Shown one piece after another: positions 2,152 to 42,988 of a stretch of 64,000 nucleotides of DNA. How positions within the stretch are numbered: position 1 is the first letter of the stretch; every line of letters begins with the position of its first letter. The position numbers and the translations under genes are program-made. The notes under the pieces are model-generated. The model saw nothing but the letters and a program-made list of their open reading frames with translations, had not been told where the DNA came from and did no database searches. The stretch comes from Candidatus Levyibacteriota bacterium (GTDB lineage: Bacteria; Patescibacteriota; Microgenomatia; Levybacterales; UBA12049), in the NCBI GenBank assembly GCA_038205015.1, contig JBBRCK010000005.1, positions 1,656-65,655 of the forward strand. The letters run 5' to 3'.

Positions 2152-2742
2152 TTATCTTGTGCACCAGTAGCATGATGTTGGGTTGGCATCTTTATGAGCA
2201 GTGGTATCGCATAACACTCCAGCGTCTACTCCGGCAACAGTGTAATGGGTATTTGCATTGTGAAGGATTGATTTTGACGATGGATTAAAACATCCAACTG
2301 TCTGATTATTTGCCACTTCTTGGGTAATAAAGATGTATTTTAAATTATTAGATGTAGCAAACGCCTGTTTTAATTCATTATCTCCTATAAGCGCTGTTGT
2401 ACAATCATTCATAGCGCCTGTTGAAAGAAGTGATACATCTCCTGTTGGTACCGCACCAGCATGGCAATTTGCTCCGCCGTTTGCAACCGTATCCCATGGA
2501 TAAGCAGAATGAGTTGTGTAATATCTGGTAGTTGCGTTAAGCCATTCAACCAAAGCATTAGTGGTATTAGTATCTTGTGCTTTTTTGAGTTGTTCAAATG
2601 GATCGATGGTTGCAACAAGTGCTGCTGCCAAAACTCCGAGGATTCCAATAACGACTAAAAGTTCAATTAAAGTAAAACCTGACTTTATATTTTTTCTAAG
2701 GTTTTTGAAATATGTTTTCATGTACTTATTAATAATAGTCAT
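2152..2742 (-). CDS. type IV pilin (prepilin N-terminal domain), Cys-rich C-terminus
   Basis: ...RKNIKSGFTLIELLVVIGILGVLAAALVA prepilin motif; probable start at the second Met (MKTYFKNLRKNIKSG|F). 8 Cys in the C-terminal domain. Confidence 0.75.
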   Translation of the reverse strand: MTIINKYMKTYFKNLRKNIKSGFTLIELLVVIGILGVLAAALVATIDPFEQLKKAQDTNTTNALVEWLNATTRYYTTHSAYPWDTVANGGANCHAGAVPTGDVSLLSTGAMNDCTTALIGDNELKQAFATSNNLKYIFITQEVANNQTVGCFNPSSKSILHNANTHYTVAGVDAGVLCDTTAHKDANPTSCYWCTR

Positions 2743-2782
2743 AATAAAAAGTTCTTGTCAATAGGCATTTTGAAGCTAGTTT

Positions 2783-3994
2783 TTAATTAATACTCGAAAT
2801 TAAACTATAAATTGGAGTAATAACTGAGATTATTAAAAAGGCAACGCCGATACCTAAAATTATCATAATAAAAGGTTCCATTGCTGTTGTTAAAGTTTTT
2901 ACTGTTTCGTCAACCTCTCTCTCAAAGTATTCTGACGCTTTTCCTAAGGTTTCATCTATTTTTCCTGTTTGTTCACCAACTTTTACCAGCTGAATTAAAA
3001 GCGGCGGGAAAATAGGATAATAACTCATTGCATCGCCAATTGTGACACCTTTTTCGACTTGTTTTGAAATATCTATTATTGCATTTTTAAAAATTACGTT
3101 TCCTGTGGTATCGGCTGTTTCGACCAAAGATTCAACTACTAGGGTACCAGTTCCAACCAGCAAGCCAAAAGTTCTTGCAAATTCGGCTAAAATTGTTTTT
3201 GAAATAAGTTTTCCAAAAACAGGAGTCCTTAAAAGAGTAGCGTCGATTATTGCTTCACCTTTTTCCGTTTTAGCCCATTTCCTATAACCAAAAATACTAA
3301 GTCCTATTGCCCCCAGCACAAGTGGCCAAAAACCAATCATAAAATTAGAAAGTCCAACCAGAATTTGAGTCGGTAAGGGAAGTGGAACATTAAGATTTAC
3401 ATATAATAAAGTTAATTGGGGAATAACAAAAATCATCATAATTGACATAATTACCACCATTAAAATTACAACTATTACCGGATACATTAAAGCTCCTTTA
3501 ATGGTACCTTTTAGCTTGGCTTGTTTTTCTAAATTATCTGCCAAACGCGATAAAACCTTATCCAAAAGTCCCGATATCTCACCGGCTTTAATAATAGAAA
3601 TAAAAATGGGGGTAAAAACTTTTGGATGTTTTTCAAGAGCCTGAGAAAATGTTTTTCCCTCCTGAATATCGTTAATAACCGTAGTCACTACCTCTGCCAT
3701 AAAAGGATTTTGCATCTGCTCTTTCAAAATCTCTAAAGCCCTCATTAAAGTAAGACCCGAAGCAAGCATTGAGGATAATTGTCGGGTAAAAAGTACTAAA
3801 TCGTTTTGCTTAACTTTCTTTAAAAACGGAAGATTTGACCAAGGCTTATTATTTGCGGTTACGATTTGAACAGGAATAAGTTCTTTACCTCTTAAGTAAT
3901 CTGCCGCCACCTCGATATCTTTTGCATCTAAAAGTCCTTGTACTAATTTTCCGTCTTTGGACACAGCCTTGTATCTTAATTGCATATTATCCAA
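2783..3994 (-). CDS. pilC: type IV pilus assembly platform protein PilC (GspF family)
   Basis: 403 aa, two GspF-like repeats each with TM segments (..LASGLTLMRALEIL.. / ..TFGLLVGTGTLVVESL..). Located between pilT and the pilins. Confidence 0.85.
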   Translation of the reverse strand: MDNMQLRYKAVSKDGKLVQGLLDAKDIEVAADYLRGKELIPVQIVTANNKPWSNLPFLKKVKQNDLVLFTRQLSSMLASGLTLMRALEILKEQMQNPFMAEVVTTVINDIQEGKTFSQALEKHPKVFTPIFISIIKAGEISGLLDKVLSRLADNLEKQAKLKGTIKGALMYPVIVVILMVVIMSIMMIFVIPQLTLLYVNLNVPLPLPTQILVGLSNFMIGFWPLVLGAIGLSIFGYRKWAKTEKGEAIIDATLLRTPVFGKLISKTILAEFARTFGLLVGTGTLVVESLVETADTTGNVIFKNAIIDISKQVEKGVTIGDAMSYYPIFPPLLIQLVKVGEQTGKIDETLGKASEYFEREVDETVKTLTTAMEPFIMIILGIGVAFLIISVITPIYSLISSIN

Positions 3995-5054
3995 CCATTC
4001 TTAATAATTCATCCGGTCTAAGGGCGTATGATTTTGCAGTTTCCAAACTAATGGTTCCTGCCAAAACCAAAGAAGCAAGGGAAGATTCTAAAGTTATCAT
4101 TCCCGCGTCCTGAGAAGTTTGAATAATCGAATCTATTAAATGAGTTTTTCCCTCCCTAATATTGGTAGCTATGGCAGAAGTACCGGTTAGAACTTCAACT
4201 CCCGGAACTCTTCCTCCGTCAATTTTTGGAATAAGACGTTGAGAAACAACACCTTTTAATGTAGCTGCAAGCTGGCTTCTAACCTGGGTCTGCTGGGAAG
4301 CGGGGAATGAATCGATGATTCTGTCAATTGTTTGGGACGCTGAATTTGTATGAAGAGTTGAAAAAACTAAATGGCCGGTTTCGGCAATCGTTAAAGCGGC
4401 TGCAATTGTTTCGGGATCTCTCATTTCTCCGATCAAAACAACATCCGGATCTTCTCTTAAAGCACTTTTTAAAGCTAAAGACCATGAATGAGTATCAATA
4501 TCCATTTCACGTTGGGAAATCATACTTTTTCCACCCGGATAAACGTATTCAATCGGGTCTTCAATGGTTAAAATATGTACTGCGTTATTCAAATTAATTT
4601 CGTTCATTATTGCTGCAATGGTGGTAGATTTTCCCTGACCGGTTGGTCCGGTTACCAAAATAAAACCTTGTTTTAAAGCTGAAAAACTGTGTAAAATTCT
4701 AGGAAGTTTTAATTCTTCAATTGTTCTAATAATCGGCTGCAAAAATCTAAAGGCAGCCGAAAGCGCACCTCTTTGATAATAAATATTTGACCTAAATCTT
4801 CCAAGCTCTCCGTAAGAACCCCCGCCGAATCCAAAAGAAAAATCGATTTCTTTATTATTGATTAGCATTTCTTTTTGGTCGGGTTTTAAAATTCCAAAAA
4901 TCATTTCTTCCATAATCTGAGACGTTAAAGGAGGATAGTTAGACATGTATCTTAAATTTCCATCAATTCTTACTGCCGGAGGAACACCGGGTAAGAGATG
5001 CAAATCGGATGCATTATTTTTTATTGTTAAATCTAAAAGTTCGTGTATCGTCAT
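3987..5054 (-). CDS. pilT: twitching-motility/retraction ATPase PilT
   Basis: 355 aa; ASDLHL...PPAVRIDG N-terminus, Walker A GPTGQGKST, HILTIEDPIEY, GEMRD, TGHLVFSTLHT motifs of PilT-type hexameric ATPases. Confidence 0.85.
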   Translation of the reverse strand: MTIHELLDLTIKNNASDLHLLPGVPPAVRIDGNLRYMSNYPPLTSQIMEEMIFGILKPDQKEMLINNKEIDFSFGFGGGSYGELGRFRSNIYYQRGALSAAFRFLQPIIRTIEELKLPRILHSFSALKQGFILVTGPTGQGKSTTIAAIMNEINLNNAVHILTIEDPIEYVYPGGKSMISQREMDIDTHSWSLALKSALREDPDVVLIGEMRDPETIAAALTIAETGHLVFSTLHTNSASQTIDRIIDSFPASQQTQVRSQLAATLKGVVSQRLIPKIDGGRVPGVEVLTGTSAIATNIREGKTHLIDSIIQTSQDAGMITLESSLASLVLAGTISLETAKSYALRPDELLRMVG

Positions 5055-5059
5055 ATTCT

Positions 5060-6799
5060 TTATTCTTGAGCTACTCTAAGTACTTCTTCAACGGTTGTTG
5101 TCCCGGCGAGTACTTTTAAGTAACCATCCTGTTTCATGGTTATCATTCCCTCGGCAACTGCTTCTTTTTCTATTGTACCTGAATCGGCATGCTGCAATAC
5201 AAGACCCGCAATTTTTTCCGTAATCGTCAAGGTTTCAAAAATTCCTACTCTCCCCAGATATCCGGATTGACCACACTGGTCACAGCCTTTGCCTTTATAA
5301 AATTTTATTTCTTTTTGATCTAATGGGAAATATTTTCCTAAAACAACTTTCATTTCATCAACAATCTGTTGCGGGGGGACATAATCCACTTTGCATGTCT
5401 TGCAAATTTGCCTGACAATTCTTTGTCCTAAAACCGCATTCATCGTTGAAGCCAGTAAAAATGTTTCTGCCCCTAAATCCAAAAGCCTAGGAAGCGCTCC
5501 TGTAGCATTGGACGTATGAAGCGTTGAAAAAACCAAATGGCCGGTTAAAGCTGCTTGAATTGCCAACTCGGTTGTTTCTTTGTCACGTATTTCTCCTACA
5601 AGGATAATGTTAGGATCTTGCCTTAAAAACGACCTTAATCCTTCGGCAAAAGTTAAGCCAACGGCCGGATTTACCTGAACCTGATTAATTCCCGGCATCT
5701 GATACTCAATAGGATCTTCCAACGTTGAAATATTAACCCTGGTCGTGTTTAGTTTATTCAAAACCGAATATAAAGTAGTAGTCTTACCCGAACCGGTTGG
5801 TCCTACTACTATAATAATACCGTGAGGTCTAAGCATTGCTGTTTCTAAATTTCGAAGTGACGAACCGTTTAATCCAAGCTCTTCCAAAGAGGGGACACCG
5901 CCCGATTTTCGAAGAAGCCTCATTACGATTTTCTCGCCAAATGAAGTTGGCAAAACAGAAATTCTAAGATCGACCTCTTTATCTTCGACTTTAAAATTAA
6001 AACGCCCATCCTGTGGAGTACGGTGTTCATCGATTTTCATTTCGGCTAAAATTTTGATTCTTGAAATTACCGCTTCCTGGACGCTTTTAGGAAGCGAAAG
6101 CCTATCGTATAAAATTCCGTCAATTCTGTATCTAACCCTTACTCTATCCTCTTGCGGTTCAATGTGAACATCGGAAGCCCTGCTGGTTACGGCATATTCC
6201 AAAATTGTTGAAACTATTTTTGCAATTGGAGCTTCTTTAATAATCTGGGCAATCTGATTAGTGTCAATGGTTTTAATTTTCCCCCTATCTTCGGTTTCTT
6301 TTATTGCAGCTCCGACTTCTCCTACCAATTCCTGCCTATACTGCTCACTAATTGCTTTATCTACTTCAGTTTTAGAAGATGCAAAAGCCTTTATGGTAAG
6401 ATTTGTTTTTTCTCTTACAAAAGTTATTGAATCTAAATCTACAGGATTACTCATCGCAATCGAAAGAGATTGATTTTTATCATCATAAGCAAAAGGAATA
6501 AGCGAGAATCTTTCGGCAACTGCTCTTGGAACAAAACTTAAAGCTTCGGGAGAAAAAGAGGCAGTTTCTAAATCAACATAGGGAATATCCCAAAGCTTGG
6601 CCTTTGCCCGGGAAACCTTTTCGTCCGAAACAATTGCCAAAGCCTCAAGTATTGATTCTTCGGGCACTCCTTTACTTGCGCTTTTTACTTTAATATCATC
6701 GTATTGCTCTTGTGTTAAGAGCTTATCGGCAAATAAAATGTCAGCAAGACTTTGATTTTCGGATTGTTCTTGAATTTGTGTAGTAGTTAAATCGGGCAT
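5060..6799 (-). CDS. pilB: type IV pilus assembly ATPase PilB (GspE family)
   Basis: 579 aa; Walker A GPTGSGKTTT, GEIRD, TGHLVFSTLHT, C-terminal tetracysteine zinc motif CKTCK...CDQCGQSGY typical of PilB/GspE. Confidence 0.9.
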   Translation of the reverse strand: MPDLTTTQIQEQSENQSLADILFADKLLTQEQYDDIKVKSASKGVPEESILEALAIVSDEKVSRAKAKLWDIPYVDLETASFSPEALSFVPRAVAERFSLIPFAYDDKNQSLSIAMSNPVDLDSITFVREKTNLTIKAFASSKTEVDKAISEQYRQELVGEVGAAIKETEDRGKIKTIDTNQIAQIIKEAPIAKIVSTILEYAVTSRASDVHIEPQEDRVRVRYRIDGILYDRLSLPKSVQEAVISRIKILAEMKIDEHRTPQDGRFNFKVEDKEVDLRISVLPTSFGEKIVMRLLRKSGGVPSLEELGLNGSSLRNLETAMLRPHGIIIVVGPTGSGKTTTLYSVLNKLNTTRVNISTLEDPIEYQMPGINQVQVNPAVGLTFAEGLRSFLRQDPNIILVGEIRDKETTELAIQAALTGHLVFSTLHTSNATGALPRLLDLGAETFLLASTMNAVLGQRIVRQICKTCKVDYVPPQQIVDEMKVVLGKYFPLDQKEIKFYKGKGCDQCGQSGYLGRVGIFETLTITEKIAGLVLQHADSGTIEKEAVAEGMITMKQDGYLKVLAGTTTVEEVLRVAQE

Positions 6800-6844
6800 T
6801 ACTATTATAGTAGAAAAAAATGTGGTATAAAGTCAATTAGTTTT

Positions 6845-7501
6845 ATGCAAAGTGCGATAATCGTAGGCCTAGAAGAGAAGGCAAAAGAAAGGGTTTGGGA
6901 AATTGCCAAAGACAATAATGTCTCCAAATTTGACGTAGAAATTTTGGAAACCGAAAAAGCTCTAGGGATTCCCGATGTCAGATTATTACAAAAAAGGGTT
7001 TTTCTAAAACCTTTAAAAGGGGATAAAAAAATGATTGTAATAGAAGCTTTTTTTGGAGCAACACCGGAAGCACAAAATTCACTTTTAAAAGTCTTGGAAG
7101 AGCCACCAATTAGCACAATAATGATTATTCTTGCTAAAACAACCGACTTTTTACTTCCTACAATTCTTTCCAGATGTACAATTTTAGAAATTACAAAAAA
7201 GAAAAAATTAACAGACGAAGATTTAGAAAAAAACTTAAATATTCTAAAACAGATTAAACAAAATAAAGTTGGAAAAGGTTTTTTGTATGCGCAAAATAAT
7301 GGAAAGAGCAGGGAGGAAGCATTAGTTTTTATAGAAGATTTAATTGTTTCACTACATTCAACAATTACTAAAACAAACAATGATTTTTCTCTGAAAGAAA
7401 TTCAGAAGATGTTAAAAGAGTTACAAAAATTTCGTAAAATTATCAAAACAACCAATATAAATATTAGGTTTACTTTAGAAAATTTATTTTTGAATTTTTA
7501 A
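6845..7501 (+). CDS. holB: DNA polymerase III delta-prime subunit-like clamp-loader protein (short form)
   Basis: LLKVLEEPP box and sensor-1 SRC motif (TILSRCTIL) of clamp-loader AAA+ subunits. The P-loop region is degenerate or absent, as in delta-prime. Confidence 0.6.
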   Translation: MQSAIIVGLEEKAKERVWEIAKDNNVSKFDVEILETEKALGIPDVRLLQKRVFLKPLKGDKKMIVIEAFFGATPEAQNSLLKVLEEPPISTIMIILAKTTDFLLPTILSRCTILEITKKKKLTDEDLEKNLNILKQIKQNKVGKGFLYAQNNGKSREEALVFIEDLIVSLHSTITKTNNDFSLKEIQKMLKELQKFRKIIKTTNINIRFTLENLFLNF

Positions 7502-8725
7502 ATGAATCAGGAAAACAATCTTAGATTATTGGCCAAAATATCACTGATAGTTTTTGCGTATATTTTAATTTACTTTTTCTATAATGGTTTTCTTGTAAAA
7601 ATATACGAAGGAGACAGTCTAAATTATCACATTCCCATTGCCAAAGCTTTTTTAAATGGAACCATAATCAACCCGGTCCATATTAACGGAAATAGTTTTT
7701 TAAGATATTATCCTGGCTCATCCGAGGGAATTTTGGCAGCATTGATTTTGATTGGACTGCCGATGAGCATTTTCAACGTACTTGCAGCTATTTTTCTTTT
7801 TATCGTGCTTATTTATTCAGGAAAGAAATTTGAATTAAATAACTACTTATCAATTATTTTTGCTTCAAGTATTGTTACGCTACATACTATTATTAGATGG
7901 ATTAATACACAAGTAATCGACTCTTGGATCGTGGCATTTTTTATGCTGACTTTGGCCCTTTTACAAAAACCGGAAAAGAAAATAAGTTATTTTTTACTGC
8001 TTGGCTTATCTTCCGGAATGTTAATTGGCACGAAGTATACCGGCTTAATTTATTTAATTGTTTTACTTATTTTTCATTTCCAAAAACTTATAAAAGTATT
8101 AAACCTAAAGCAGCTTTTATATTTTTTAATTCCATTCACAATCTTGGGGCTTATTTGGTATTTTAGGAACTTAATTGTAATTAATAACCCTCTATATCCT
8201 TTTCCATTTTTATTCTTTAAGGGGGTACATATGGATTTTCAAAGCAATAACGTTTTAAGAGCTTTTTTCTACCCGGATGGAATTGTCAGGTTTTTAAATG
8301 GAGCACTTAGCGAATACGGACTATGGATAATTTCACTTTTTGCCCCGCTTTTATTTCTATTTAAGAAATTTAGACATGATAAAAATTTGTCAAAGGCAAG
8401 AATGTTAATTTTTATCGCAATAATAAATTTTGGGGTGTTTTTATTTCTTCCTTCGGACAAGTACTATCATATTGTAGTTTCTGTTTTTAGATATAGCTAT
8501 CCCGTATTTGTACTGGTAATTCTAAGCTTTTTCGTAATTGCTCAAAAATTAAAAAAAGATTTATTAATTGCATTTTTAGCTCTTACCGGATTAATAATTA
8601 TTCCCGAAATTAGATTACTGCCAAAACTTATGTTTATATTTATACCGGTTGCCATTGGTATATTTTATTTTGAAGAAATTTATTCTTTTATGAAAAATAA
8701 AGTGCGTTTAAAAGGTGGAAAATAA
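7502..8725 (+). CDS. polytopic membrane protein, GT-C-like (ArnT/PMT-type) glycosyltransferase candidate
   Basis: 407 aa with >=10 predicted TM helices and an N-terminal loop containing an acidic motif (YEGDSLNYHIP), resembling GT-C lipid-linked-sugar transferases. Adjacent to a DPM1-like GT2. Confidence 0.45.
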   Translation: MNQENNLRLLAKISLIVFAYILIYFFYNGFLVKIYEGDSLNYHIPIAKAFLNGTIINPVHINGNSFLRYYPGSSEGILAALILIGLPMSIFNVLAAIFLFIVLIYSGKKFELNNYLSIIFASSIVTLHTIIRWINTQVIDSWIVAFFMLTLALLQKPEKKISYFLLLGLSSGMLIGTKYTGLIYLIVLLIFHFQKLIKVLNLKQLLYFLIPFTILGLIWYFRNLIVINNPLYPFPFLFFKGVHMDFQSNNVLRAFFYPDGIVRFLNGALSEYGLWIISLFAPLLFLFKKFRHDKNLSKARMLIFIAIINFGVFLFLPSDKYYHIVVSVFRYSYPVFVLVILSFFVIAQKLKKDLLIAFLALTGLIIIPEIRLLPKLMFIFIPVAIGIFYFEEIYSFMKNKVRLKGGK

Positions 8726-9373
8726 ATTTTACTCCGGTGATTGTTTTTAGCTTTGATTTACCCCATTTTCTGGCGTTTTCCCTTGATGGCACCTCAACTA
8801 TTTTTAAACCTTTTTTTAATGCATTAACCACCATTTCTTGTTCTAGTTCATGCCCGTTAGCTTTTAAATTAAGTTTTGATATGGAAGACTTTCTTAAAGC
8901 TCGGAAACCAAAAAGTATGTCACTAAAATTTGAGCTAAATCTTTTATTAAGTAAATAAACCAGAAAATCCGAACCGCTGGACCTAAGAAGCCCTTGGAAA
9001 TCCATTTTTAAATCAAAACTTCCACCGGTTCTTCTTGAGCCGATTACCACATCGGCTTTTTCTTCAAAAAGGGGAGTTAGAATTTTTGGGATGTCTTTAT
9101 AATCTGATGAGCCGTCTGCATCAAAAATTAAAATATACTCATACTTTGCTTTTTTAAAACCCATTCTGACCGCTTCGCCCCGTCCTTTTCCATGATCAAG
9201 TATGTATCTTGCATTAACTTTTTTAGCAATTGCTTTAGTATTATCTTTTGAGTGCCCGTCAATTACAATAATATCGTTTGAATAAGCTTTAATGCTTTTG
9301 AGAACTTTTTCCAAGCCCTCTGCTTCGTCTTTGCAAGGAACAAGAATGCTTACTTTATCTTTGTTATATCTCA
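8688..9373 (-). CDS. family 2 glycosyltransferase (polyprenyl-phosphate sugar synthase, DPM1/GtrB-like)
   Basis: Starting at the internal Met MRYNKDKVSILVPCKDEAEG...IIVIDGHSKDNT...ILIFDADGSSD (DxD), a classic GT2 fold. The upstream part of the 293-aa ORF looks non-coding. Confidence 0.75.
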
Positions 9374-9424
9374 TAATATTTGGGATTATACCACAGGCTT
9401 TTCTTTTAGAATTTGTTTTGCGGA

Positions 9425-9452
9425 TTGACAAATTATTTCCTAACAATATAAT
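9425..9452 (+). promoter_or_regulatory. sigma-70-type promoter TTGACA-N16-TATAAT ending ~10 nt before the ATG of the 9462 ORF (predicts a leaderless mRNA)
   Basis: ggaTTGACAaattatttcctaacaaTATAATaaacttacaATG read directly; no room for a Shine-Dalgarno sequence. Confidence 0.5.
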
Positions 9453-9461
9453 AAACTTACA

Positions 9462-9674
9462 ATGGCAGTAGAAGCACCAGGGCAAAAAGGCTACGTTCCA
9501 ACAAGTATTTGGCCTACGGAAATTTTTCCTGAACCAGGTACGTGCCTCATAAAACCGATGGGTCCTCAAGAAGAAGTAATTGATTTAGGACAACCCGTTA
9601 ATCCCGGACAACTAGACCTTGGATTTACAATTTATCCAAAAATCCCCCAATCCATATTAAGAAAGCTCGTGTAA
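9462..9674 (+). CDS. hypothetical small Pro-rich protein (70 aa)
   Basis: ORF directly downstream of a consensus promoter; no recognisable domain. Confidence 0.35.
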   Translation: MAVEAPGQKGYVPTSIWPTEIFPEPGTCLIKPMGPQEEVIDLGQPVNPGQLDLGFTIYPKIPQSILRKLV

Positions 9675-9738
9675 TCCACTATCACCACATATAATTTTTG
9701 TGTTGACATCTCTATATTTAATATACAATAGTATTCTT

Positions 9739-10284
9739 ATGGATGAGCATGGAGATATTCCCGCAGGAGAACCGGAAACCCCACCGGATGCAGAACAAGT
9801 AATTCTCGAAAACGTGGCAAGATTATTAGGCTCTAAAGATGGACCTCAACCGACAATACATTCTGGTTTAGACGCTATAGTACCGGTCGAGGATTTATTA
9901 GAAATTGATAGAAGAGCAGAAAGAATTTCCTTATCTTCGGCGCAAACCGGAGATGTTATTTGGTGGAAAACACAAAGCGGAACCAACGGATATTTTTTGG
10001 TGAATGAGGCCTATACAAACAGTGGAAATGGCCTAAACGGAATAAAAGATGGAATTGGTAAATTTTTAATCACCAGAAGAGAAGGTCATCCCTTAGGGGA
10101 TCAAAACGGAGAAGGAAACATCATGGGAGCAACTCTAGGCGGAATGTTAAAAAAGGACACTATAATGAAAGGTGCTCAGTTGGAATACGAAATCACAGTA
10201 AGCGAAGCCCCTGCTAAACAATATAAAACAACTTCTGTAACAGAAATGGGTATCATAAAAGCTGGACAACTATCTCAAAAATAA
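9739..10284 (+). CDS. hypothetical protein (181 aa from the internal Met MDEHGDIPAGE...)
   Basis: A TTGACA...TACAAT promoter lies inside the 5' end of the long ORF, so the start at ~9739 is preferred. Acidic N-terminus, Gly/Asn-rich middle, C-terminus ...KAGQLSQK. No recognisable domain. Confidence 0.5.
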   Translation: MDEHGDIPAGEPETPPDAEQVILENVARLLGSKDGPQPTIHSGLDAIVPVEDLLEIDRRAERISLSSAQTGDVIWWKTQSGTNGYFLVNEAYTNSGNGLNGIKDGIGKFLITRREGHPLGDQNGEGNIMGATLGGMLKKDTIMKGAQLEYEITVSEAPAKQYKTTSVTEMGIIKAGQLSQK

Positions 10285-10298
10285 CCTCGGAAAATTTG
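10273..10298 (+). repeat. 26-bp element TCTCAAAAATAACCTCGGAAAATTTG spanning the stop codon of the 9739 ORF; copy 1 of 2
   Basis: Near-identical copy at 10938-10962 (TCTCAAAAATAACTCCGGAAATTTG), each followed by a -10-like box for the next gene. Confidence 0.6.
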
Positions 10299-10332
10299 TT
10301 CTTAAAGTAAAAAGTGATACAATTCACAAATT

Positions 10333-10521
10333 ATGTCAGAAACAGAACAAAAAATAGGTAAACTACCACAACAAACCGGAGAACAATTTAAAAAAAGTGT
10401 GGTTGCTGCTCTTTTACTTGGTGACATGGGGAACATGATGCTGCAATTTCCCGAGGAAATTCTTTCGGTAGTTTTCAAAGATAATTCCGATAAAGCTTCT
10501 GAACAACCGGAAAGAACATAA
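10333..10521 (+). CDS. hypothetical small protein (62 aa)
   Basis: ORF preceded by a TTGTTC-N16-TACAAT-like promoter ~9 nt upstream; no known domain. Confidence 0.35.
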   Translation: MSETEQKIGKLPQQTGEQFKKSVVAALLLGDMGNMMLQFPEEILSVVFKDNSDKASEQPERT

Positions 10522-10584
10522 TCAAAAGCCGCAGAAATTTTCCACCGCTAATCTTTAACGTTTAAATTAAACCAAAATAGTTAA

Positions 10585-10613
10585 TTGACAAACATGCTTC
10601 TCAATTTTATAAT
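10585..10613 (+). promoter_or_regulatory. perfect consensus sigma-70 promoter TTGACA-N17-TATAAT ending 6 nt before ATG 10620 (leaderless)
   Basis: aaTTGACAaacatgcttctcaatttTATAATgcgctaATG read directly. Confidence 0.55.
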
Positions 10614-10619
10614 GCGCTA

Positions 10620-10949
10620 ATGTTAGAAGCATGGATTGAAGCAAGAGCCAAAACCCAACATTTAGAACAAGCAGTGGACGTTTTTACTCACGAAGAATTA
10701 ATCAGACAACAAAGAGAAAGAGAAGTAACAATTACAGAAATTCAGCAAACCGGTGACAGCTTACACTATGGAGGATTTTTTAGAATAATGAATAATCATT
10801 TAGGAACAAATGTTAACAGCCTAGATATACATGAAAGAGCAATGCTTTTATCTGCTGTCAAAGATTTATCTAAAGCCTTTGGACCAAACGGAGTAACGGG
10901 AATGTTTCGAACTTGGCAAAACGGGCAAGCCTCCTTGTCTCAAAAATAA
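10620..10949 (+). CDS. hypothetical protein (109 aa)
   Basis: ORF immediately after a perfect promoter. The C-terminus ...GQASLSQK resembles the C-terminus of the 9739 ORF and is followed by the same 26-bp repeat. Confidence 0.5.
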   Translation: MLEAWIEARAKTQHLEQAVDVFTHEELIRQQREREVTITEIQQTGDSLHYGGFFRIMNNHLGTNVNSLDIHERAMLLSAVKDLSKAFGPNGVTGMFRTWQNGQASLSQK

Positions 10950-10962
10950 CTCCGGAAATTTG
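10938..10962 (+). repeat. copy 2 of the 26-bp stop-codon-spanning element
   Basis: TCTCAAAAATAACTCCGGAAATTTG; see 10273-10298. Confidence 0.6.
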
Positions 10963-10996
10963 AGTTTTAACCTCACTTATACTAAAATACCATGCT

Positions 10997-11431
10997 ATGG
11001 TTGAATACGGAATACATAGGGTAGAGGTTATTAATTCAAATGGAGACATCGAGCTTTATTCTTCAGTACAGAATTGTAAAAATGCCCACGAAAAAAGATT
11101 AGAGGGAAAATTTAACTCCTTTAAACAAGCTTCAAGAAAAAAATTTATAGATAGAACAGCATGGCGAAGTTTAGAGATACCATATGTTCCGGTAACAATT
11201 GGTGCTTTAACAGGCGCTGTAGGAAGTGTGGTACCAAATATTCTACACGGGCACCCCGATAAGCTAAGGGATGTTTTTATACTCGTGAGTGCGTTAGCGA
11301 TCTCCGAAATTGGTGCAAAAGTAAGAACTACAGCAATGGCGGAAAGATATAAGGCTGACCAACAAAGACTTGCTCTTAAGCAAGCAGAACTAGAACAACA
11401 AAAAGTTTTCCGCACTTCATTTCCGTATTAA
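10997..11431 (+). CDS. hypothetical protein with one or two hydrophobic segments (144 aa)
   Basis: Preceded by TTGAGT-N17-TAAAAT. Contains VPVTIGALTGAVGSVVPNIL and VFILVSALAISEIGA hydrophobic stretches plus a C-terminal coiled-coil-like region (ADQQRLALKQAELEQQK). Confidence 0.45.
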   Translation: MVEYGIHRVEVINSNGDIELYSSVQNCKNAHEKRLEGKFNSFKQASRKKFIDRTAWRSLEIPYVPVTIGALTGAVGSVVPNILHGHPDKLRDVFILVSALAISEIGAKVRTTAMAERYKADQQRLALKQAELEQQKVFRTSFPY

Positions 11432-11500
11432 ACAAGCTATCTTAATTTTAAAAAATGGCTTCTTACCTCTAGAAATTAATCAAAAATTTTGTTAAACTAG

Positions 11501-13477
<1,977 letters not shown>

Positions 13478-13496
13478 CCTCTTTTTAAAATCCGTC

Positions 13497-13550
13497 TTGA
13501 CAAAAATTTAACGAATGCTGTATGCTATTTATATCCCCCCATAGGGGATA
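13497..13550 (+). promoter_or_regulatory. cop operon promoter (TTGACA-N18-TATGCT) followed by a CsoR-type operator palindrome TATCCCC-N5-GGGGATA
   Basis: cTTGACAaaaatttaacgaatgctgTATGCTatttaTATCCCCccataGGGGATAacatATG. The GC-rich inverted repeat overlaps the transcription start immediately upstream of csoR. Confidence 0.55.
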
Positions 13551-13554
13551 ACAT

Positions 13555-13824
13555 ATGTATAGACCTAAAGATACGCAAGAAAGGATACTTCATAGATTAA
13601 AGATTGCCAGGGGACATTTAAATAAAGTGATAACAATGGTTGAGGAAGACAAGTATTGCATAGATGTTTTACATCAATCTCAAGCAATTCAAGCGGCTTT
13701 AAAAGAAACCGACTCGGTAGTTTTGGAAAATCACTTAAGGACCTGCGTTGCCGATTCCATAAAATCAGGTAACCAGGAAGAGGCCGTAAAAGAAGTAATG
13801 GAGGTTTTTAAAAAGAAGAACTAA
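13555..13824 (+). CDS. csoR: copper-sensing transcriptional repressor CsoR (CsoR/RcnR family)
   Basis: 89 aa, four-helix-bundle family signature with the Cys-His-Cys metal ligands (KYCIDVLHQ ... NHLRTCVAD). Directly upstream of copA. Confidence 0.8.
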   Translation: MYRPKDTQERILHRLKIARGHLNKVITMVEEDKYCIDVLHQSQAIQAALKETDSVVLENHLRTCVADSIKSGNQEEAVKEVMEVFKKKN

Positions 13825-13916
13825 TGAGCCCCGATAAGATTTTAATCACAATTATAGGAATAGCTTCAATAATTTTTACTTACTGGTATTTTTTGGCAAA
13901 AAAACAAGATGAATAA
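13824..13916 (+). CDS. small single-TM ORF (~30 aa) between csoR and copA
   Basis: [30 protein letters not shown]; the start overlaps the csoR stop (TAATG) and the stop overlaps the copA start (gATGAATAA). Coordinates approximate, +/-1. Confidence 0.3.
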
Positions 13917-16128
13917 AAATACTTATTTTATAAAAGGCATGCATTGTGCATCTTGCGTTAATGTTTTGGAAAGATCGTTGAAAAAAGTCAACGGAGTCGA
14001 AGATGCAAACGTGAATTTGGCCACTGAAAAAGCCACTGTTACTTTTAATCCTCAAATTGTAAATGAAAAAAAACTGGCTTCAACTGTTGCAAGCGTTGGG
14101 TACGAAATGGTTTTAGAAGATAGAAATATGCATCATGACCATATGAAGGAAGAAAAGAAAGTGGAATTACGAATACTTAAAAAGAAAGTAATTTTAAGTC
14201 TTTTCCTGGGAAGTTTAATTATTTGGGGAAGTTTTCCCGGGCTATCAAAAACTGCGCCTTTAATCTTACAAAACTTCTTTATCCAATTTCTTTTGGCAAT
14301 TCCTGTTCAATTCTGGGCAGGCTTAGAATTTTATAAAGCAGCTATTCCAGCCCTACGGCATAGAAATGCCAATATGGACACTCTAGTTGCATTGGGAACT
14401 TCTGTTGCTTTTATTTATTCATCTGTAGTTATATTTTTTCCTCGATTATTTAACTCAATTGGCGTTGTTGCTATGCCTTACTTTGATATTTCTACTATTA
14501 TAATAGGCTTAATTTTATTGGGCAGATATTTAGAAGCAAAAGCCAAAGCCGGAACATCAGAAGCAATTAAAAAATTAATGGGTTTATCGCCAAAAACTGC
14601 AAGAGTTATAAGAAATGGAAAAGAAATTGATATCTCGATAGAAGAAGTTTTAATCGGCGATATTATAAGAGTAAGACCCGGGGAGAAAATTCCGGTTGAC
14701 GGAACAGTAACTGAGGGAAATTCATCAGTTGATGAAAGCATGATTACGGGAGAAAGTATTCCGGTTGAAAAAATAAAAGGAAACGTTGTAATTGGGGCAA
14801 CAGTAAATAAATCGGGAACATTTTTATATAAAGCAACAAAAGTAGGAAGCGCAACCATGCTTTCTCAAATTATCAAACTTGTTCAAGATGCTCAAGGAAG
14901 TAAAGCTCCAATTCAGCGAATCGCAGATTTAATTTCTTCATATTTTGTTCCAATAGTCATTATGCTTTCTTTATTAACTTTTGTTATTTGGTATGATTTT
15001 GGACCAGGCTTAATCTTTTCTCTTTTAAGTATGGTTTCTGTATTAATTATTGCTTGCCCTTGTGCAATGGGACTTGCCACTCCAACTGCCGTTATGGTTG
15101 GTACAGGAAAGGGTGCGCAAAATGGAATTTTAATAAAAGAGGCAAAGAGTTTAGAAATTGCCCATAAAATCAACACCGTTGTTTTTGATAAAACAGGAAC
15201 CTTAACCAATGGCAAACCTCTGGTAACGGATGTAATTTCAAAAGATAAAAATCAAAAGTTATTACAACTGGCTGCATCACTTGAAAAAGTTTCCGAACAT
15301 CCTTTAGCTTTTGCAATTTTACAAAAAGCTCAGGAAGAACAACTTAACTTAGATAAGGTAGATCAATTCCACGCTGTTTCCGGATTTGGAGTTGAGGGGA
15401 TTATAAATAAAGAGAGAGTATTCTTCGGCAACAGAAAACTAATGGAGAAAGAAAAAATAAATATAGAAAGTCTTGAAAATAATATTAATAACTTAGAAAA
15501 TCAGGGAAAAACAGTAATGATTTTAAGCATTAATAAATCTGCCCAAGGCTTAATTGCTGTTTCGGATACTATTAAAGACAGCGCGAAAGAAGGAGTTTCA
15601 AATCTCTTAAAAATGGGAATTGAAGTGGTAATGATAACAGGGGATAACAAAAAAACCGCCCAAGCAATTGCTAAAACATTAGGAATAAAAAGAGTGTTAG
15701 CGGAAGTTTTGCCACAAGATAAAGAAGCGGAAATTAAAAAAATTCAAGCTGAGGGAAAAGTTGTCGCAATGGTGGGTGATGGAATAAATGACGCACCTGC
15801 ACTAGCAACTTCGGATATCGGAATTGCAATGGGTTCTGGAACCGATGTTGCAATAGAATCTTCGGATATTACACTAATCAATAAAGACTTACGATCTGTG
15901 TCTTGGGCAATTAATTTATCTAAAAAAACAATGACAACAATAAAATTAAACCTTTTCTGGGCTTTTGGCTATAATATAATATTAATACCCGTTGCAATGG
16001 GAGTTTTATACCCATTTCTACATGTGCTTTTAAATCCAATATTTGCGTCGGCAGCAATGGCACTAAGTTCAATTTCTGTAGTATCTAATTCTTTAAGTTT
16101 AAAAAGAGCAAATATTATAAAAATTTAA
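13909..16128 (+). CDS. copA: copper-translocating P1B-type ATPase
   Basis: N-terminal HMA domain [13 protein letters not shown] motif ([11 protein letters not shown]), DKTGTLT phosphorylation site, [10 protein letters not shown]; 739 aa. Confidence 0.9.
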
Positions 16129-16129
16129 T

Positions 16130-17161
16130 ATGAATAATTTAATTACTATTTTTTTAACCGGTCTTATAACAGGGGGACTAACTTGCATGGCTGTACAGGG
16201 TGGGCTTCTGGCGGCAACTCTTGCACAAAGAGAAGAAGAAAAATTAAAAAATAATCTTAAAAAAGGCGGAAACGCTTTACCGATTTTATCTTTTTTAATT
16301 GCAAAATTAACAGCCTACACAATTTTTGGATTTTTATTGGGTCTTCTTGGATCATTTTTTACTCTCTCTATTAGTGCAAAAGTAATTATGCAAATTGCTG
16401 TTGTAATATTTATGCTGGGAACCGCTTTTAATATTTTAGAGATTCATCCCATTTTTAGATATTTTATAATTCAGCCTCCTAAATTTCTAACTAGACTTGT
16501 AAGAAAACAATCAAAAAGCCAGGATATTTTTGCACCGGCAATACTGGGCGCATTCACTGTTTTTATTCCTTGTGGAACTACGCAGGCAATGATGGCATTA
16601 GCGATAGCCTCAGGCAAGCCAATTTCCGGAGCCTTGATTCTTTTTGCCTTTATTCTAGGAACTTCACCTTTATTTTTTATCTTAGGATATTTTGCAACCA
16701 CGCTTGGAGAAATATTTCAAAAACAATTTATGAGAATTGCAGCAGTTGCCTTAATTATTCTTTCAATTTTTAACTTAAATAATGCGCTTGCATTAACGGG
16801 ATTTAATTTAAATCTAGGTGGAACAGTAAAAAACATTTATTGCACGTTTGCGGTTTGCGATAATAATAACGTTGCTCTAAAAAATAGCGATCCAATTACT
16901 GAAGCAACAATTATCATCGGAAGCACTTCTTACCAACCAAATCAAATTACCGTAAAAAGAGGAGCAAATATTACGCTTCATTTGGTAAATAAAAATGGCT
17001 CAAGCTGCATTCAGGCGTTTACAATTCCTTCTTTAAATATACAAAAAGTTGTTCCACTAGGAAGCTCCGACACTCTTACCTTTACCGCGCCACAAACAGT
17101 AGGCGAATTACCATTTATGTGCTCTATGGGAATGTATCGAGGAGTTATAAAAGTAATATAA
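16130..17161 (+). CDS. membrane protein with a C-terminal Cys/Met-rich cupredoxin-like (Cu-binding) domain; cop operon accessory
   Basis: ~6 TM helices in residues 1-220, then a soluble ~110-aa domain ending LPFMCSMGMYRGVIKVI (C-x-M-x-M, reminiscent of a cupredoxin/CopC-type C-terminal strand). Translationally adjacent to copA and copZ. Confidence 0.4.
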   Translation: MNNLITIFLTGLITGGLTCMAVQGGLLAATLAQREEEKLKNNLKKGGNALPILSFLIAKLTAYTIFGFLLGLLGSFFTLSISAKVIMQIAVVIFMLGTAFNILEIHPIFRYFIIQPPKFLTRLVRKQSKSQDIFAPAILGAFTVFIPCGTTQAMMALAIASGKPISGALILFAFILGTSPLFFILGYFATTLGEIFQKQFMRIAAVALIILSIFNLNNALALTGFNLNLGGTVKNIYCTFAVCDNNNVALKNSDPITEATIIIGSTSYQPNQITVKRGANITLHLVNKNGSSCIQAFTIPSLNIQKVVPLGSSDTLTFTAPQTVGELPFMCSMGMYRGVIKVI

Positions 17162-17164
17162 CAT

Positions 17165-17371
17165 ATGATAAAGAAAAAATTTAAAATATCGGGAATGCAT
17201 TGCACCTCTTGCGCGATGAACATCGACGGAGAATTAGAGGATACAAGCGGAGTCAAACAATCGAACACGCATTATGCAAAATCAGAAACTGAAGTAGAAT
17301 TTGACGAAACTAAATTAACAAGTGCTGACGTAATTAAAATAATTAAAAAAGTAGGATATAATGCTTCTTAA
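17165..17371 (+). CDS. copZ: copper chaperone (HMA domain)
   Basis: 68 aa, GMHCTSCAMNI MxCxxC motif, ferredoxin-like HMA fold length. Confidence 0.8.
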   Translation: MIKKKFKISGMHCTSCAMNIDGELEDTSGVKQSNTHYAKSETEVEFDETKLTSADVIKIIKKVGYNAS

Positions 17372-17940
17372 TGTTTAAAGACCCCATTTTAAATAAATTA
17401 GTAAAAAAATACGGACCACATAAATTTGAAAACCGCTCCGAGCTTTTGTATGAAGAGTTAGTCGAATCAATTATCAGCCAACAATTATCAGGCAAAGCAG
17501 CCGATACTATATTTAAAAGATTTCTAGGTTTATATAGGAATTCTAAATTTCCTCGTCCTGAAGAGCTTTTAAAAACAGATGTTGAAAAATTACGAAGCGC
17601 CGGAATGAGTTATTCCAAAGCGTCATACATTAAAAACATTTCCCAAGCTTTTAGAGATAAACAGTTAGATGTTAAAAAATTAGAAAAAATGTCAGATGAT
17701 GAAATAAAAATAGAACTAACTAAAATAAAAGGAATAGGAAGTTGGACCGCAGAAATGACTTTGATTTTTACTTTGCAAAGAGAAGATATTTTTTCTTTAG
17801 GCGATGCAGGAATCAGAAGGGCAATTAAGAATCTATACAAAATTGAAAAAGAAAAAGATATTCTAAAACTTGCAGAAGAATGGAAACCAAAAAGAAGTTA
17901 CGCCTGTTGGTATTTATGGAGGAGTTTAGAAAATGATTAA
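17371..17940 (+). CDS. HhH-GPD superfamily DNA glycosylase (AlkA/3-methyladenine glycosylase II-like)
   Basis: IKGIGSWTAEMTLIFTLQREDIFSLGDAGIRRA, the helix-hairpin-helix plus Gly/Pro-rich-Asp signature. Confidence 0.7.
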   Translation: MFKDPILNKLVKKYGPHKFENRSELLYEELVESIISQQLSGKAADTIFKRFLGLYRNSKFPRPEELLKTDVEKLRSAGMSYSKASYIKNISQAFRDKQLDVKKLEKMSDDEIKIELTKIKGIGSWTAEMTLIFTLQREDIFSLGDAGIRRAIKNLYKIEKEKDILKLAEEWKPKRSYACWYLWRSLEND

Positions 17941-18511
17941 AGTAATTGCGTTTGATTACGCTGATGTTATAGCCGAGGGCCCGATGTCAAAATGGATTAA
18001 GGAAAATGTAAAACTTGATAAAGAAAAGTTAATAGAATATAAACAACACGTTCATAAATGGGACCTTGGAGAAATGGAACTTAAAAAAGTCTACGGCATA
18101 TTGAGTGAATTAACTGGAATACCGCAGGAATTAATTTGGGAAAAATTTTATGAAAAATCTCTTCCAAATAATGAGTTAATTACTTTAATTAAACAACTTA
18201 AAAAGAGATATAAAATTATAATATTTTCAAATTACATCGGAGAACTTTTGCGAAAACTCTTAAATCATTATGGAATAACAGATTTATTTGATGAAATAAT
18301 AATTTCTTCCGAACATAAGTTAAAAAAACCGGATATAAAATTTTTTGAAGTTTTAGTAAAAAAGTCAGGAGTTAATAAAAAAGAAATTCTATTTACTGAT
18401 GACAGAACGGATAATGTTGATGCATCAAATGCTTTCGGAATTAAAGCTTTTATTTTTACAAACACTAAGCATTTAATCAAAGACTTACAAAATGAAGGTG
18501 TTAAAATTTAA
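17933..18511 (+). CDS. HAD-superfamily hydrolase
   Basis: Motif I IAFDYADVI (DxD), motif III/IV ...ILFTDDRTDNVD; 192 aa. Confidence 0.65.
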   Translation: MIKVIAFDYADVIAEGPMSKWIKENVKLDKEKLIEYKQHVHKWDLGEMELKKVYGILSELTGIPQELIWEKFYEKSLPNNELITLIKQLKKRYKIIIFSNYIGELLRKLLNHYGITDLFDEIIISSEHKLKKPDIKFFEVLVKKSGVNKKEILFTDDRTDNVDASNAFGIKAFIFTNTKHLIKDLQNEGVKI

Positions 18512-18566
18512 TAATAAAAATAGTCTTGAAAAGCTAAATTAATTACCTTATAATGTATAAGTTCTT

Positions 18567-26507: not shown

Positions 26508-26644
26508 AAAAAGTGTTCCCGTTAAGTAATTTGAAGATGAAAACCCCAAAAGAGGAAATAATCTGTATTTATTATAGGGTATGGTATTAGCCTCTGTCAA
26601 CCCCTTATTTGACAACTTATATAAATAAATATAAGATAATTCAA

Positions 26645-28259: not shown

Positions 28260-28290
28260 TTAACCAAATTTGCTATAATCCTTTGTTATT

Positions 28291-28863: not shown

Positions 28864-28933
28864 AAACCCCAATAGATAAATTCTAAAACTAATAAAATTG
28901 ACAAGTTAATATTTTTAATGATAATCTAAATCT

Positions 28934-30392: not shown

Positions 30393-30476
30393 ATGAAGCA
30401 TGATTATACCACTCTCGAAGCTGGAGAATGTCAATAGTAGGAAATTTTTACAAAATTTAGCTTCAATTAGCCTCAA

Positions 30477-39086: not shown

Positions 39087-39100
39087 AGTTTTAGGCTCTG

Positions 39101-42948: not shown

Positions 42949-42988
42949 TTCTCTTTACTTCTTATTATTTTTGTCTGTATAATAAATT

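Follow-up and report, generated by a model that had tools for sequence, protein, structure and literature searches.

Leaderless transcription units of the sigma-70 type have been mapped genome-wide in Mycobacterium, Streptomyces and Deinococcus; the 2013 work of Cortes et al. is reportedly an example of such mapping. In these units each gene has its own promoter, the -10 element lies about 6-9 nt from the start codon, and a Shine-Dalgarno (SD) sequence is absent. The same layout was found in a block of five small genes (genes 1-5) upstream of gyrB in the stretch of 64,000 nucleotides analysed here (the window; contig JBBRCK010000005.1, positions counted from the first letter of the stretch). 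Start sites were mapped in the three genera, whereas those of the block are predicted from the sequence. Unlike in those taxa, the layout appears to be the default in this host, which resembles bacteria of the Candidate Phyla Radiation (CPR), housekeeping genes included. The block is probably an ordinary part of the resident chromosome of a small, AT-rich bacterium, itself a probable member of the CPR, and consists of five leaderless monocistronic genes in a hotspot of gene turnover between holB and gyrB.

An earlier interpretation made from the letters only (the sequence-only reading) had taken the block for a mosaic and possibly horizontally acquired cassette array. Integron cassette arrays are like the block in their same-strand small open reading frames (ORFs) without known function, in a repeated junction element, and in a region that varies among relatives. 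Unlike in integron arrays, no IntI integrase is encoded near the block, and each ORF has its own promoter instead of a common Pc. The repeated element also differs from attC in being 33 nt long, in standing 3' of only two of the five genes, and in lacking an inverted-repeat fold (z +0.9 to +1.1). A Phage_integrase gene was seen 10 kb downstream of gyrB in a different genome (L010). Flexible islands and turnover hotspots are like the locus in that the flanks (pilB-holB and gyrB) are kept with unrelated content between them; unlike flexible islands, the locus has neither mobility genes nor a compositional anomaly. In such genomes, perfect promoters, leaderless spacing, a mildly raised GC content and ORFs without domains are no sign of a foreign island, because the organism builds its ordinary genes in that way. 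The main value of the locus is negative, and modest positive points remain.

Promoters and coding signature of the five genes

Each of the five ORFs stands behind its own -35/-10 pair, as the sequence-only reading had stated, and the promoters of genes 1 and 4 are perfect (12/12; Table 1). The closeness of the -10 element to the start codon was likewise recovered, with gaps of 9, 9 (or 6), 9, 6 and 8 nt in genes 1-5. The two values for gene 2, whose promoter scored 10/12 in the consensus scan, belong to TACAAT (9 nt) and AATAGT (6 nt) as alternative -10 elements. The 6-nt gap of gene 4 makes the A of its ATG coincide with the position expected of a canonical start site. No SD-like core (GGAG, GAGG, AGGA) was found upstream of the five genes. 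The promoter of gene 1 is arranged back-to-back with the -10 element of the glycosyltransferase (GT2) gene (TATAAT, minus strand, 9390-9385).

This layout had been presented as a trait of the block, which it is not. Start codons were counted as abutting a promoter if they opened an ORF of at least 50 codons 4-12 nt downstream of the site. Such a start codon follows 20 of the 54 sites of the window that score at least 10/12, as compared to 6% of random positions, and 17 of these 20 sites lie outside the block. Examples are the sites before pilB, the GT2 gene, the H+-pyrophosphatase (H+-PPase) gene, the genes at 17371, 24868, 26609, 28291, 28934, 33001 and 42989, and the genes 55322-56389, 56917-57615 and 58159-59097. 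A second survey took 63 ORFs of 100 amino acids (aa) or more that do not overlap, each with its first ATG. A -10 hexamer with at least five of six matches ended 4-12 nt before this ATG in 22 of the 63 genes, and an SD-like core of the same three types, mostly AGGA, preceded only 6. The gene 2 orthologues of four relatives (L001, L003, L007, L009) have promoters with a gap of 5-8 nt between -10 and ATG (TATAAT-5 nt-ATG in L003 and L007, TAGTAT-8 nt-ATG in L009). For most first-in-operon genes, this organism and its relatives apparently use E. coli-like promoters that yield mRNAs with neither leader nor SD sequence. The window represents clear sequence-level evidence that gene expression in a probable CPR bacterium is largely SD-less and leaderless, with an E. 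coli-like -35/-10 consensus; no direct statement on leaderless or SD usage in the CPR was found in the literature.

The block itself is distinguished by density, with five consecutive monocistronic units, and by its two perfect promoters. Four perfect 12/12 sites were observed in the 64-kb window, as compared to 0.07 in first-order Markov simulations, whereas promoter-like sites at a loose threshold showed no excess in the region (10 versus 11.2 in shuffled sequence). In the proposed mechanism, RNA polymerase with the primary sigma factor would start transcription at or within 0-3 nt of each ATG, each of the five genes would be transcribed on its own, and translation would begin at the AUG of the 5' terminus itself, with no SD pairing by the ribosome. 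Strong and constitutive expression of genes 1 and 4 would result from the perfect match of their promoters to the consensus. Intrinsic terminators between the genes were considered and rejected: the junction RNAs folded like shuffled sequence (z -1.0 to +1.9), and a consensus terminator scan stayed at chance level. Since the block genes are not separated by terminators, read-through from upstream promoters would probably add to downstream expression.

Promoters of the leaderless type were seen across the window, for example at 6804-6831 (minus strand), 17334-17362, 18526-18554, 28250-28279, 28898-28925 and 42954-42983, and before the minus-strand genes 55322-56389 and 58159-59097. A perfect TTGACA-N16-TATAAT (49376-49403, plus strand) lies inside, and antisense to, a gene for a 562-aa protein (48588-50276, minus strand). 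It is not followed by an ORF of at least 50 codons and is a candidate promoter of an antisense or small RNA. At 26571-26637, two divergent promoters stand back-to-back at a distance of 8 bp, a perfect TTGACA-N18-TATAAT (26600-26571, minus strand) and TTGACA-N17-TAAGAT (26609-26637, plus strand). As the minus-strand site falls inside the ORF 25659-26762, the listed TTG or first ATG is probably too far upstream to be the true start of this ORF.

The five same-strand ORFs of 70, 181, 62, 109 and 144 aa within 9462-11431, on which the earlier interpretation was built, were confirmed. An assembly chimera is ruled out by L004, an independent Logan assembly of one sequencing run from the same sample, in which the 8.3-kb segment is identical and all five genes were called alike. 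Coding potential was assessed with a codon log-likelihood ratio trained on 54 host genes, with in-frame 70-codon host chunks as reference. The in-frame log-odds of genes 1-5 were 0.27, 0.42, 0.41, 0.37 and 0.22, as compared to a host mean of 0.35 +/- 0.12 and an off-frame 95th percentile of 0.02, and were negative in all other frames of each ORF. Therefore, all five ORFs are taken as genuine coding sequences, none with a foreign signature.

Genes 1 and 3 are short and had no relatives in the searches run, and the Pro and Gly richness of gene 1 is unusual. These features would suit a reading in which both genes are untranslated and their strong promoters drive small non-coding RNAs, or in which the ORFs are annotation artefacts. 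We regard this as very unlikely. The log-odds of both genes are within the host coding range and far above those of the five other frames, both show the gradient GC1>GC2>GC3 across codon positions that is typical of host genes, and their ATGs lie at leaderless distance from the -10 element. In addition, Rfam was empty at E ≤ 1 over 8500-12500, and the junction RNAs were no more structured than shuffled sequence. At the gathering threshold, Rfam returned only a tRNA-Leu in the whole window, and ARAGORN only the tRNA-Leu at 39100.

Genes 1-4 probably encode cytoplasmic proteins because no hydrophobic segment was found (maximum Kyte-Doolittle value, window 19, at most 1.16). The transmembrane segments plus coiled coil attributed earlier to the last protein are a borderline case: gene 5 has two hydrophobic peaks (1.55 and 1.44 on the same scale) at about residues 61-79 and 93-111, followed by a charged C-terminus rich in Gln, Glu and Lys. 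It may be a small, weakly membrane-associated hairpin protein.

Table 1. Features of the locus, with positions in the window.
Feature	Position	Strand	Remarks
holB	6845-7501		Core gene; upstream edge of the variable interval
Variable interval	7502-11506		Contains the gene of a 407-aa membrane protein, the GT2 gene and the five-gene block
GT2 glycosyltransferase gene	8688-9374	-	Pfam GT2; divergent from the block
Gene 1 promoter	9425-9452	+	TTGACA-N16-TATAAT, 12/12, 9 nt to ATG
Gene 1	9462-9674	+	70 aa, Pro+Gly 26%
Gene 2 promoter	9703-9732	+	TTGACA; -10 TACAAT at 9724-9729 (N15) or AATAGT at 9727-9732 (N18)
Gene 2	9739-10284	+	181 aa, conserved family without Pfam model
Junction module copy 1	10273-10305	+	Last codons and stop of gene 2 (TCTCAAAAATAA), spacer, GGAAAATTTG (10289-10298)
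Gene 3 promoter	10296-10323	+	TTGTTC-N16-TGaTACAAT, extended TGn -10, 9 nt to ATG (read by eye from the letters)
Gene 3	10333-10521	+	62 aa
Gene 4 promoter	10585-10613	+	TTGACA-N17-TATAAT, 12/12, 6 nt to ATG
Gene 4	10620-10949	+	109 aa, orphan; last codons (…SLSQK*) within junction module copy 2
Junction module copy 2	10938-10970	+	TCTCAAAAATAA, spacer, GGAAATTTG (10954-10962)
Gene 5 promoter	10960-10988	+	TTGAGT-N17-TAAAAT, 9/12, 8 nt to ATG
Gene 5	10997-11431	+	144 aa, orphan
gyrB	11507-13477		Core gene; downstream edge of the variable interval

Composition and the holB-gyrB interval

The upstream context of the locus is a type IV pilus operon (pilin, pilC, pilT, pilB) followed by holB. Downstream of gyrB lie csoR, a copper ATPase gene, genes for DsbD/cupredoxin, HhH-GPD and HAD proteins, the H+-PPase gene and gyrA. 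Of the glycosyltransferases assigned to the upstream side by the sequence-only reading, one stands as a Pfam GT2 member; the other gene encodes the 407-aa membrane protein, which had no Pfam match.

The block had also been described as GC-richer than its flanks. This is weakly so for total GC only, which is 37.7% in the block as compared to a window mean of 34.3% (standard deviation 2.4% in 2-kb windows). The proposed check of GC and codon usage against the host gave no foreign signature, with GC3 at 0.26-0.29 in the five genes (host range 0.19-0.32) and the log-odds given above (0.22-0.42). Per-gene GC in the block (0.37-0.39) is on par with gyrB (GC 0.376, GC3 0.283), pilB (0.393, 0.302), gyrA and the H+-PPase gene. 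The visible step in GC arises because the two adjacent upstream genes are very AT-rich (29% GC). The higher GC of the block stems from amino acid composition, that is from GC1 and GC2, and not from another mutational background.

Searches of the five proteins against Pfam, PHROGs, PADLOC and NCBIfam gave chance-level scores only at E ≤ 1, in agreement with the earlier statement that recognisable domains are lacking. Genes 4 and 5 retrieved only themselves among 5.8 billion protein clusters, and gene 4 had no sequence match in the PDB. A resemblance of gene 5 to trichosanthin-like ribosome-inactivating proteins was rejected (E 0.5; apart from a short 'ERYK' patch nothing matches, and the catalytic Glu is unaligned). 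Phage, plasmid or mobile origin was also considered and rejected: none of the five proteins had a relative in the viral contigs of IMG/VR, and tblastn of the concatenated block proteins against INPHARED and PLSDB was empty.

No integrase was found among the neighbours at 2152-18511 (pilB, holB, the membrane protein, GT2 and gyrB among them), nor was a candidate gene for a regulator or recombinase found near the block. The borders carry no tRNA, the only one of the window being at 39100, and no flanking direct repeats. A hydrophobic N-terminus resembling a signal peptide was not seen by eye in any of the five proteins.

A horizontally acquired or cassette-type accessory island inserted upstream of gyrB, with a defence, toxin/immunity or effector function, would account for an interval that is wholly different among genomes with about 90% identical GyrB. 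It would also agree with the absence of relatives for four of the five genes (distant relatives of genes 1 and 3 were not searched for), the repeated junction element 3' of two genes, and the total GC at the 92nd percentile. Such an origin is nevertheless quite unlikely. GC3 and codon usage are those of the host, integrase, tRNA and flanking direct repeats are missing, the viral, phage and plasmid collections are as empty as PADLOC, PHROGs, Pfam and NCBIfam, and gene 2 looks like a resident gene of the whole lineage. The same results speak against the horizontal acquisition proposed by the sequence-only reading, and its three candidate functions fared no better: PADLOC was empty for a defence or toxin system, the domain databases offered nothing for a defence island or a toxin/immunity set, and secreted effectors found no backing in the databases or in the N-termini of the proteins. 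By these searches, the block is not a recognisable defence, toxin or mobile-element system. Its proteins would rather be lineage-specific and fast-evolving.

The interval was then compared among relatives. The GyrB cluster at 90% identity has six other members, and the contigs of four of these were retrieved; the relatives compared had GyrB proteins 89-91% identical to that of the window. No relatives of genes 1-5 were found within 7.6-10 kb upstream of gyrB (tblastn E < 1; phmmer --max). The block is absent from this position in L010-L015, which are genus-level relatives and not strains, so the view of the block as accessory, in the sense of not being conserved among relatives, is upheld on these contigs. 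Paralogy of the block proteins with small proteins of the sister variable regions was examined by phmmer --max and rejected, as nothing was found below E 0.3 except for gene 2.

In L014 (GyrB 90%, PilB 78% and HolB 50% identical), the order and orientation pilB(-)-holB(+) ... gyrB(+) are kept, and the interval between holB and gyrB holds 16 unrelated genes on 8.2 kb, including genes for Ham1, HIT, CutA1 and tRNA-synt_2 proteins and many small hypothetical ones. None of the interval genes of the window was found in L014 by tblastn at E < 1. Upstream of gyrB, about 12 small hypothetical genes follow each other on one strand in L012 (GCA_040959955.1), and L010, L011 and L013 have yet other genes. 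Like the block, this array of L012 ends with small proteins (7150-7524; also 2718-3119 and 3746-4117) that are built similarly to gene 5, with one or two Gly/Ala-rich hydrophobic helices and a charged tail, without detectable sequence similarity.

Because genomes with about 90% identical GyrB carry unrelated genes there, the interval 7502-11506 is, as judged from these contigs, a replaceable segment between conserved anchors and a hotspot of gene turnover. The comparison is at genus or family level, as HolB is only 50% identical, and long divergence of fast-evolving genomes may account for the differences no less than recent exchange. A scan of genomes of the GTDB for HolB synteny gave only an unrelated match in Lachnospiraceae. 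The hotspot could be used for studying the origin and loss of orphan genes in reduced genomes.

A second variable spot was seen on the other side of gyrB. The position directly downstream is taken by a copper cluster (csoR, P-type ATPase, DsbD/cupredoxin; 13555-17161) in the window and in L012, by an AAA_18 kinase-like gene in L010, L011 and L013, and by an alpha/beta hydrolase gene in L014 and L015.

The gene 2 family

Gene 2 is the member of the block with identified relatives. Three homologues share 57-61% identity with it, and a profile search of 1.84 billion cluster representatives gave 34 at E ≤ 1e-3, 19 of them at E ≤ 1e-10. Family members are mostly 165-225 aa long and similar over their full length, with the motifs GDVVWW, GYF, GA..GG and MGIIKA..L. 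In the alignment (A2), D72, G107 and G130 are invariant, and W75 and W76 nearly so; since these residues are of structural types (Gly, Asp, Trp), purifying selection is suggested. The start ATG at 9739 is backed by the N-termini of orthologues.

Two members (P0015 and P0016, about 391 aa) carry a C-terminal extension of about 180 residues without a Pfam domain. The gene of P0015 (L016/L017/L018, 6001-7176) lies between a VapBC-like pair and a T4SS-pilin-like gene in the hrcA-grpE-dnaK-dnaJ...clpB region. Two metagenome contigs of the JGI (L007 2786-3311, L008 3-528) hold a gene 2 orthologue in which one additional G, within a run of G at the motif GRFLITRREGH, shifts the frame by +1 in both. 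The cause may be natural frameshifting, decay to a pseudogene or a sequencing error in the homopolymer.

None of the family members matches Pfam, and the profile matches no PDB sequence. The AlphaFold2 (AF2) model of gene 2 has a mean predicted local distance difference test score (pLDDT) of 85, with values above 90 over about residues 60-175, and predicts a disordered N-terminus, two helices and a beta-rich domain. An earlier AF2 model from four sequences (pLDDT 49) was unusable. Foldseek of the model against PDB and BFVD returned nothing at E < 0.07. As a proposal of low probability, the beta-rich fold of this family may be a new one, conserved within the lineage.

The FESNov catalogue comprises families of uncultivated taxa, and Patescibacteria were earlier reported to have many unknown genes (PMC10849945). 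The gene 2 family is like FESNov-type families in being conserved, without a match in Pfam, NCBIfam or PDB, and found only on contigs from metagenomes and metagenome-assembled genomes. It differs in that its genomic context is not conserved, and the likeness drawn here is one of class.

Gene 2 homologues were always found on the chromosome, in housekeeping contexts. The orders observed were pilB(-)-holB-NUDIX(-)-gene 2 homologue in L007 (identity to the proteins of the window: PilB 83%, HolB 50%); trxA-trxB-gene 2 homologue-tRNA-23S rRNA in L009; hrcA-grpE-dnaK-dnaJ-vapBC-gene 2 homologue-...-clpB in L016; and uvrC-secG-SBP-gene 2 homologue in L021. In L019 the homologue adjoins trxB-trxA-HMA-dsbD-copA-csoR. 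A constant neighbourhood was rejected, as trxB/trxA recur in two contigs only (L009, L019) and the other neighbours differ or are small hypothetical genes. Two of the places are near landmarks that are also present in the window, holB and the csoR-copA-dsbD cluster. Because the family is lineage-wide and lies near holB in L007, gene 2 looks vertically inherited, resident and not imported. The earlier picture of a mosaic of foreign cassettes does not agree with this. With about 34 clusters at 50% identity, a confident model and no match to a PDB or viral fold, the gene 2 family is a concrete, testable unknown.

The contig L009 also bears on the identity of the host. Its 23S rRNA gene, directly downstream of the gene 2 homologue, spans 4.3 kb (11378-15665) and holds a group I intron (14097-14325) and an ORF for a LAGLIDADG homing endonuclease (13486-13986), with a tRNA before and a 5S rRNA after it. 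Intron- and LAGLIDADG-bearing 23S rRNA genes are typical of CPR bacteria.

The junction module and its motif

The sequence-only reading had reported that two of the proteins end in the same tail, followed by the same DNA element. Both are real, although the tail given as G-Q-x-LSQK was slightly loose: gene 2 ends in KAGQLSQK* and gene 4 in NGQASLSQK*. The two copies of the module are 79% identical over 33 nt without gaps, and the 13 bases TCTCAAAAATAAC, which run across the last codons and the stop, are identical in both. A 24-nt pattern derived from the pair occurs only at these two places in 64 kb, with 0.03 expected. The repeat is a genuine internal duplication, and to this extent the idea of duplicated content was correct.

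Within the gene 2 family this tail is a native feature: P0002, an orthologue, ends in ...QLTQK*, many other members end in IIKAxxLxxx, and the DNA 3' of the P0002 stop (ACTTCCGGGGAAAATTTGG) is the same element. About 45 bp, comprising the 3' end of gene 2 and the following spacer, would have been duplicated onto the end of gene 4. The ...SLSQK* terminus of gene 4 and the upstream half of the gene 5 promoter would both stem from this event. Genes 3 and 5 would in this way share a duplicated promoter-upstream module, made of an A-tract and then GGAAAATTTG, whose TTG would serve as -35. In copy 1, the TTG of GGAAAATTTG opens the -35 of gene 3; in copy 2, the TTG of GGAAATTTG opens that of gene 5. 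The preceding gene's stop and last Lys/Gln codons form part of the module.

The motif GGAAA(A)TTTG is enriched in relatives, with 4 copies in the 3.1 kb of L001 (0.08 in simulations), 3 in the 2.3 kb of L003 (0.16) and 2 in the 0.9 kb of L005 (0.04); by eye, variants were seen upstream of two more promoters of L001. L014 has three intergenic copies, all within the holB-gyrB interval and one directly upstream of gyrB. In relatives, copies of GGAAAATTTG stand where one gene gives way to the next, either overlapping the -35 or in front of it. When seven junctions of four genomes were aligned, whose upstream genes are unrelated, a common order emerged: A-rich last codons, then TAA, 3-8 nt, GGAAAATTTG(G)TTTT, about 12 nt and a -10. 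In at least six copies (the two of the block, L001-2535, L003-250, L003-1957 and L014-4053), a good -10 follows the TTG of the motif at 16-17 nt, so that the motif is the -35 itself in these. Other copies stand 3-5 nt upstream of a separate -35; one of them, in reverse orientation, precedes a perfect TTGACA-N16-TATAAT of a minus-strand gene in L001. Another single copy lies between the divergent promoters of a gene 2 orthologue and its neighbour.

No hairpin was found in the junction RNAs with the repeated element (z +0.6 to +1.1), and the element is for this reason not an intrinsic terminator. It is best read as a duplicated promoter-upstream module, which is the most economical reading, and within promoters that directly adjoin the preceding stop codon, GGAAAATTTG most likely acts as an operator or in the manner of an UP element. 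UP elements, for example at rrnB P1, are A/T tracts at -40 to -60 bound by the C-terminal domain of the RNA polymerase alpha subunit. The module resembles them in two A-rich tracts, CAAAAATAA and GGAAAAT, directly upstream of the -35 at the positions of the distal and proximal subsites. Both tracts precede the -35 TTG at the two block junctions and at five junctions in relatives. Unlike in an UP element, the distal tract overlaps the last codons and stop of the upstream gene.

Several observations weigh against this interpretation of the module, or against that of the whole block as ordinary chromosome. The module has conserved G flanks (GGGGAAAATTTGGGG in relatives) and occurs in both orientations, unlike an UP element. 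In L001 and L003, the motif persists 3' of the gene 2 orthologues, where the downstream genes are unrelated and have full promoters of their own; this persistence could point to another role, as an operator, a roadblock or a recombination junction. For the block as a whole, the total GC is in the upper tail of the window (92nd percentile), and two of the four perfect promoters of 64 kb fall within these 2 kb. Genes 1 and 3 are singleton clusters at 90% identity, and their lack of relatives holds for the narrower searches run. The terms leaderless and highly expressed are derived from spacing and match to the consensus. The assignment of the organism to the CPR/Patescibacteria is probable because the 23S rRNA intron of L009, the pilus genes, the small proteins and the SD-less style agree; it was arrived at by combining these traits and is not a placement.

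It was also considered whether the module marks, controls or exchanges small genes in the variable arrays of the clade, as the site of a regulator in a co-regulated small-protein regulon or as the recombination junction of a shuffling system, instead of being a generic UP/-35 element. The intergenic copies of the 64 kb are confined to the block, which does not suit a plain UP element. The motif is present in most spacers between small hypothetical genes of L001, L003, L005 and the holB-gyrB interval of L014, the copies of the relatives are found in either orientation with conserved G flanks, and the motif is kept behind gene 2 orthologues despite a different downstream gene in each genome. On the other hand, in at least six of about 12 same-orientation cases the TTG, 16-17 nt upstream of a good -10, is simply the -35. 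An A-tract with TTG also stands before housekeeping promoters (for example 28250 and 28898), there is no candidate regulator or recombinase gene nearby, and the sample of loci is small and was picked via gene 2. We consider a regulon or shuffling system rather unlikely and prefer the duplicated promoter-upstream module.

A more far-reaching proposal, to which a similarly low probability is given, takes the stop-overlapping module (A-tract/TAA, 3-8 nt, GGAAAATTTG) as a portable junction element of a CPR clade, in a promoter-borne cassette system without integrase. Such an element would end the upstream ORF and launch a leaderless downstream gene, and would be the operator of a dedicated regulator and/or a patch of homology by which small orphan genes are swapped. 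It would explain why the motif is kept behind gene 2 orthologues despite differing downstream genes, its presence in most spacers of the small-gene arrays of relatives, and the LSQK* tail common to two unrelated block proteins. The GGAAAATTTG junction motif is a concrete, testable unknown.

Two further repeats were seen during this work. On the minus strand of L001, a hairpin-capable repeat of about 30 nt, TTCCGTTATAACATTGT[T/A]AT[T/A]ACGAGG, is present at 735-705 and 30-1. Both copies lie 60-70 nt downstream of reverse GGAAAATTTG copies that are not followed by an ORF, and these may be small-RNA units or terminators. In the window, a perfect 16-bp palindrome, AATTTCCCGGGAAATT, with the same GGAAATTTG core was found at 29605-29628, at the convergent ends of the genes 28934-29584 (plus strand) and 29586-30476 (minus strand).

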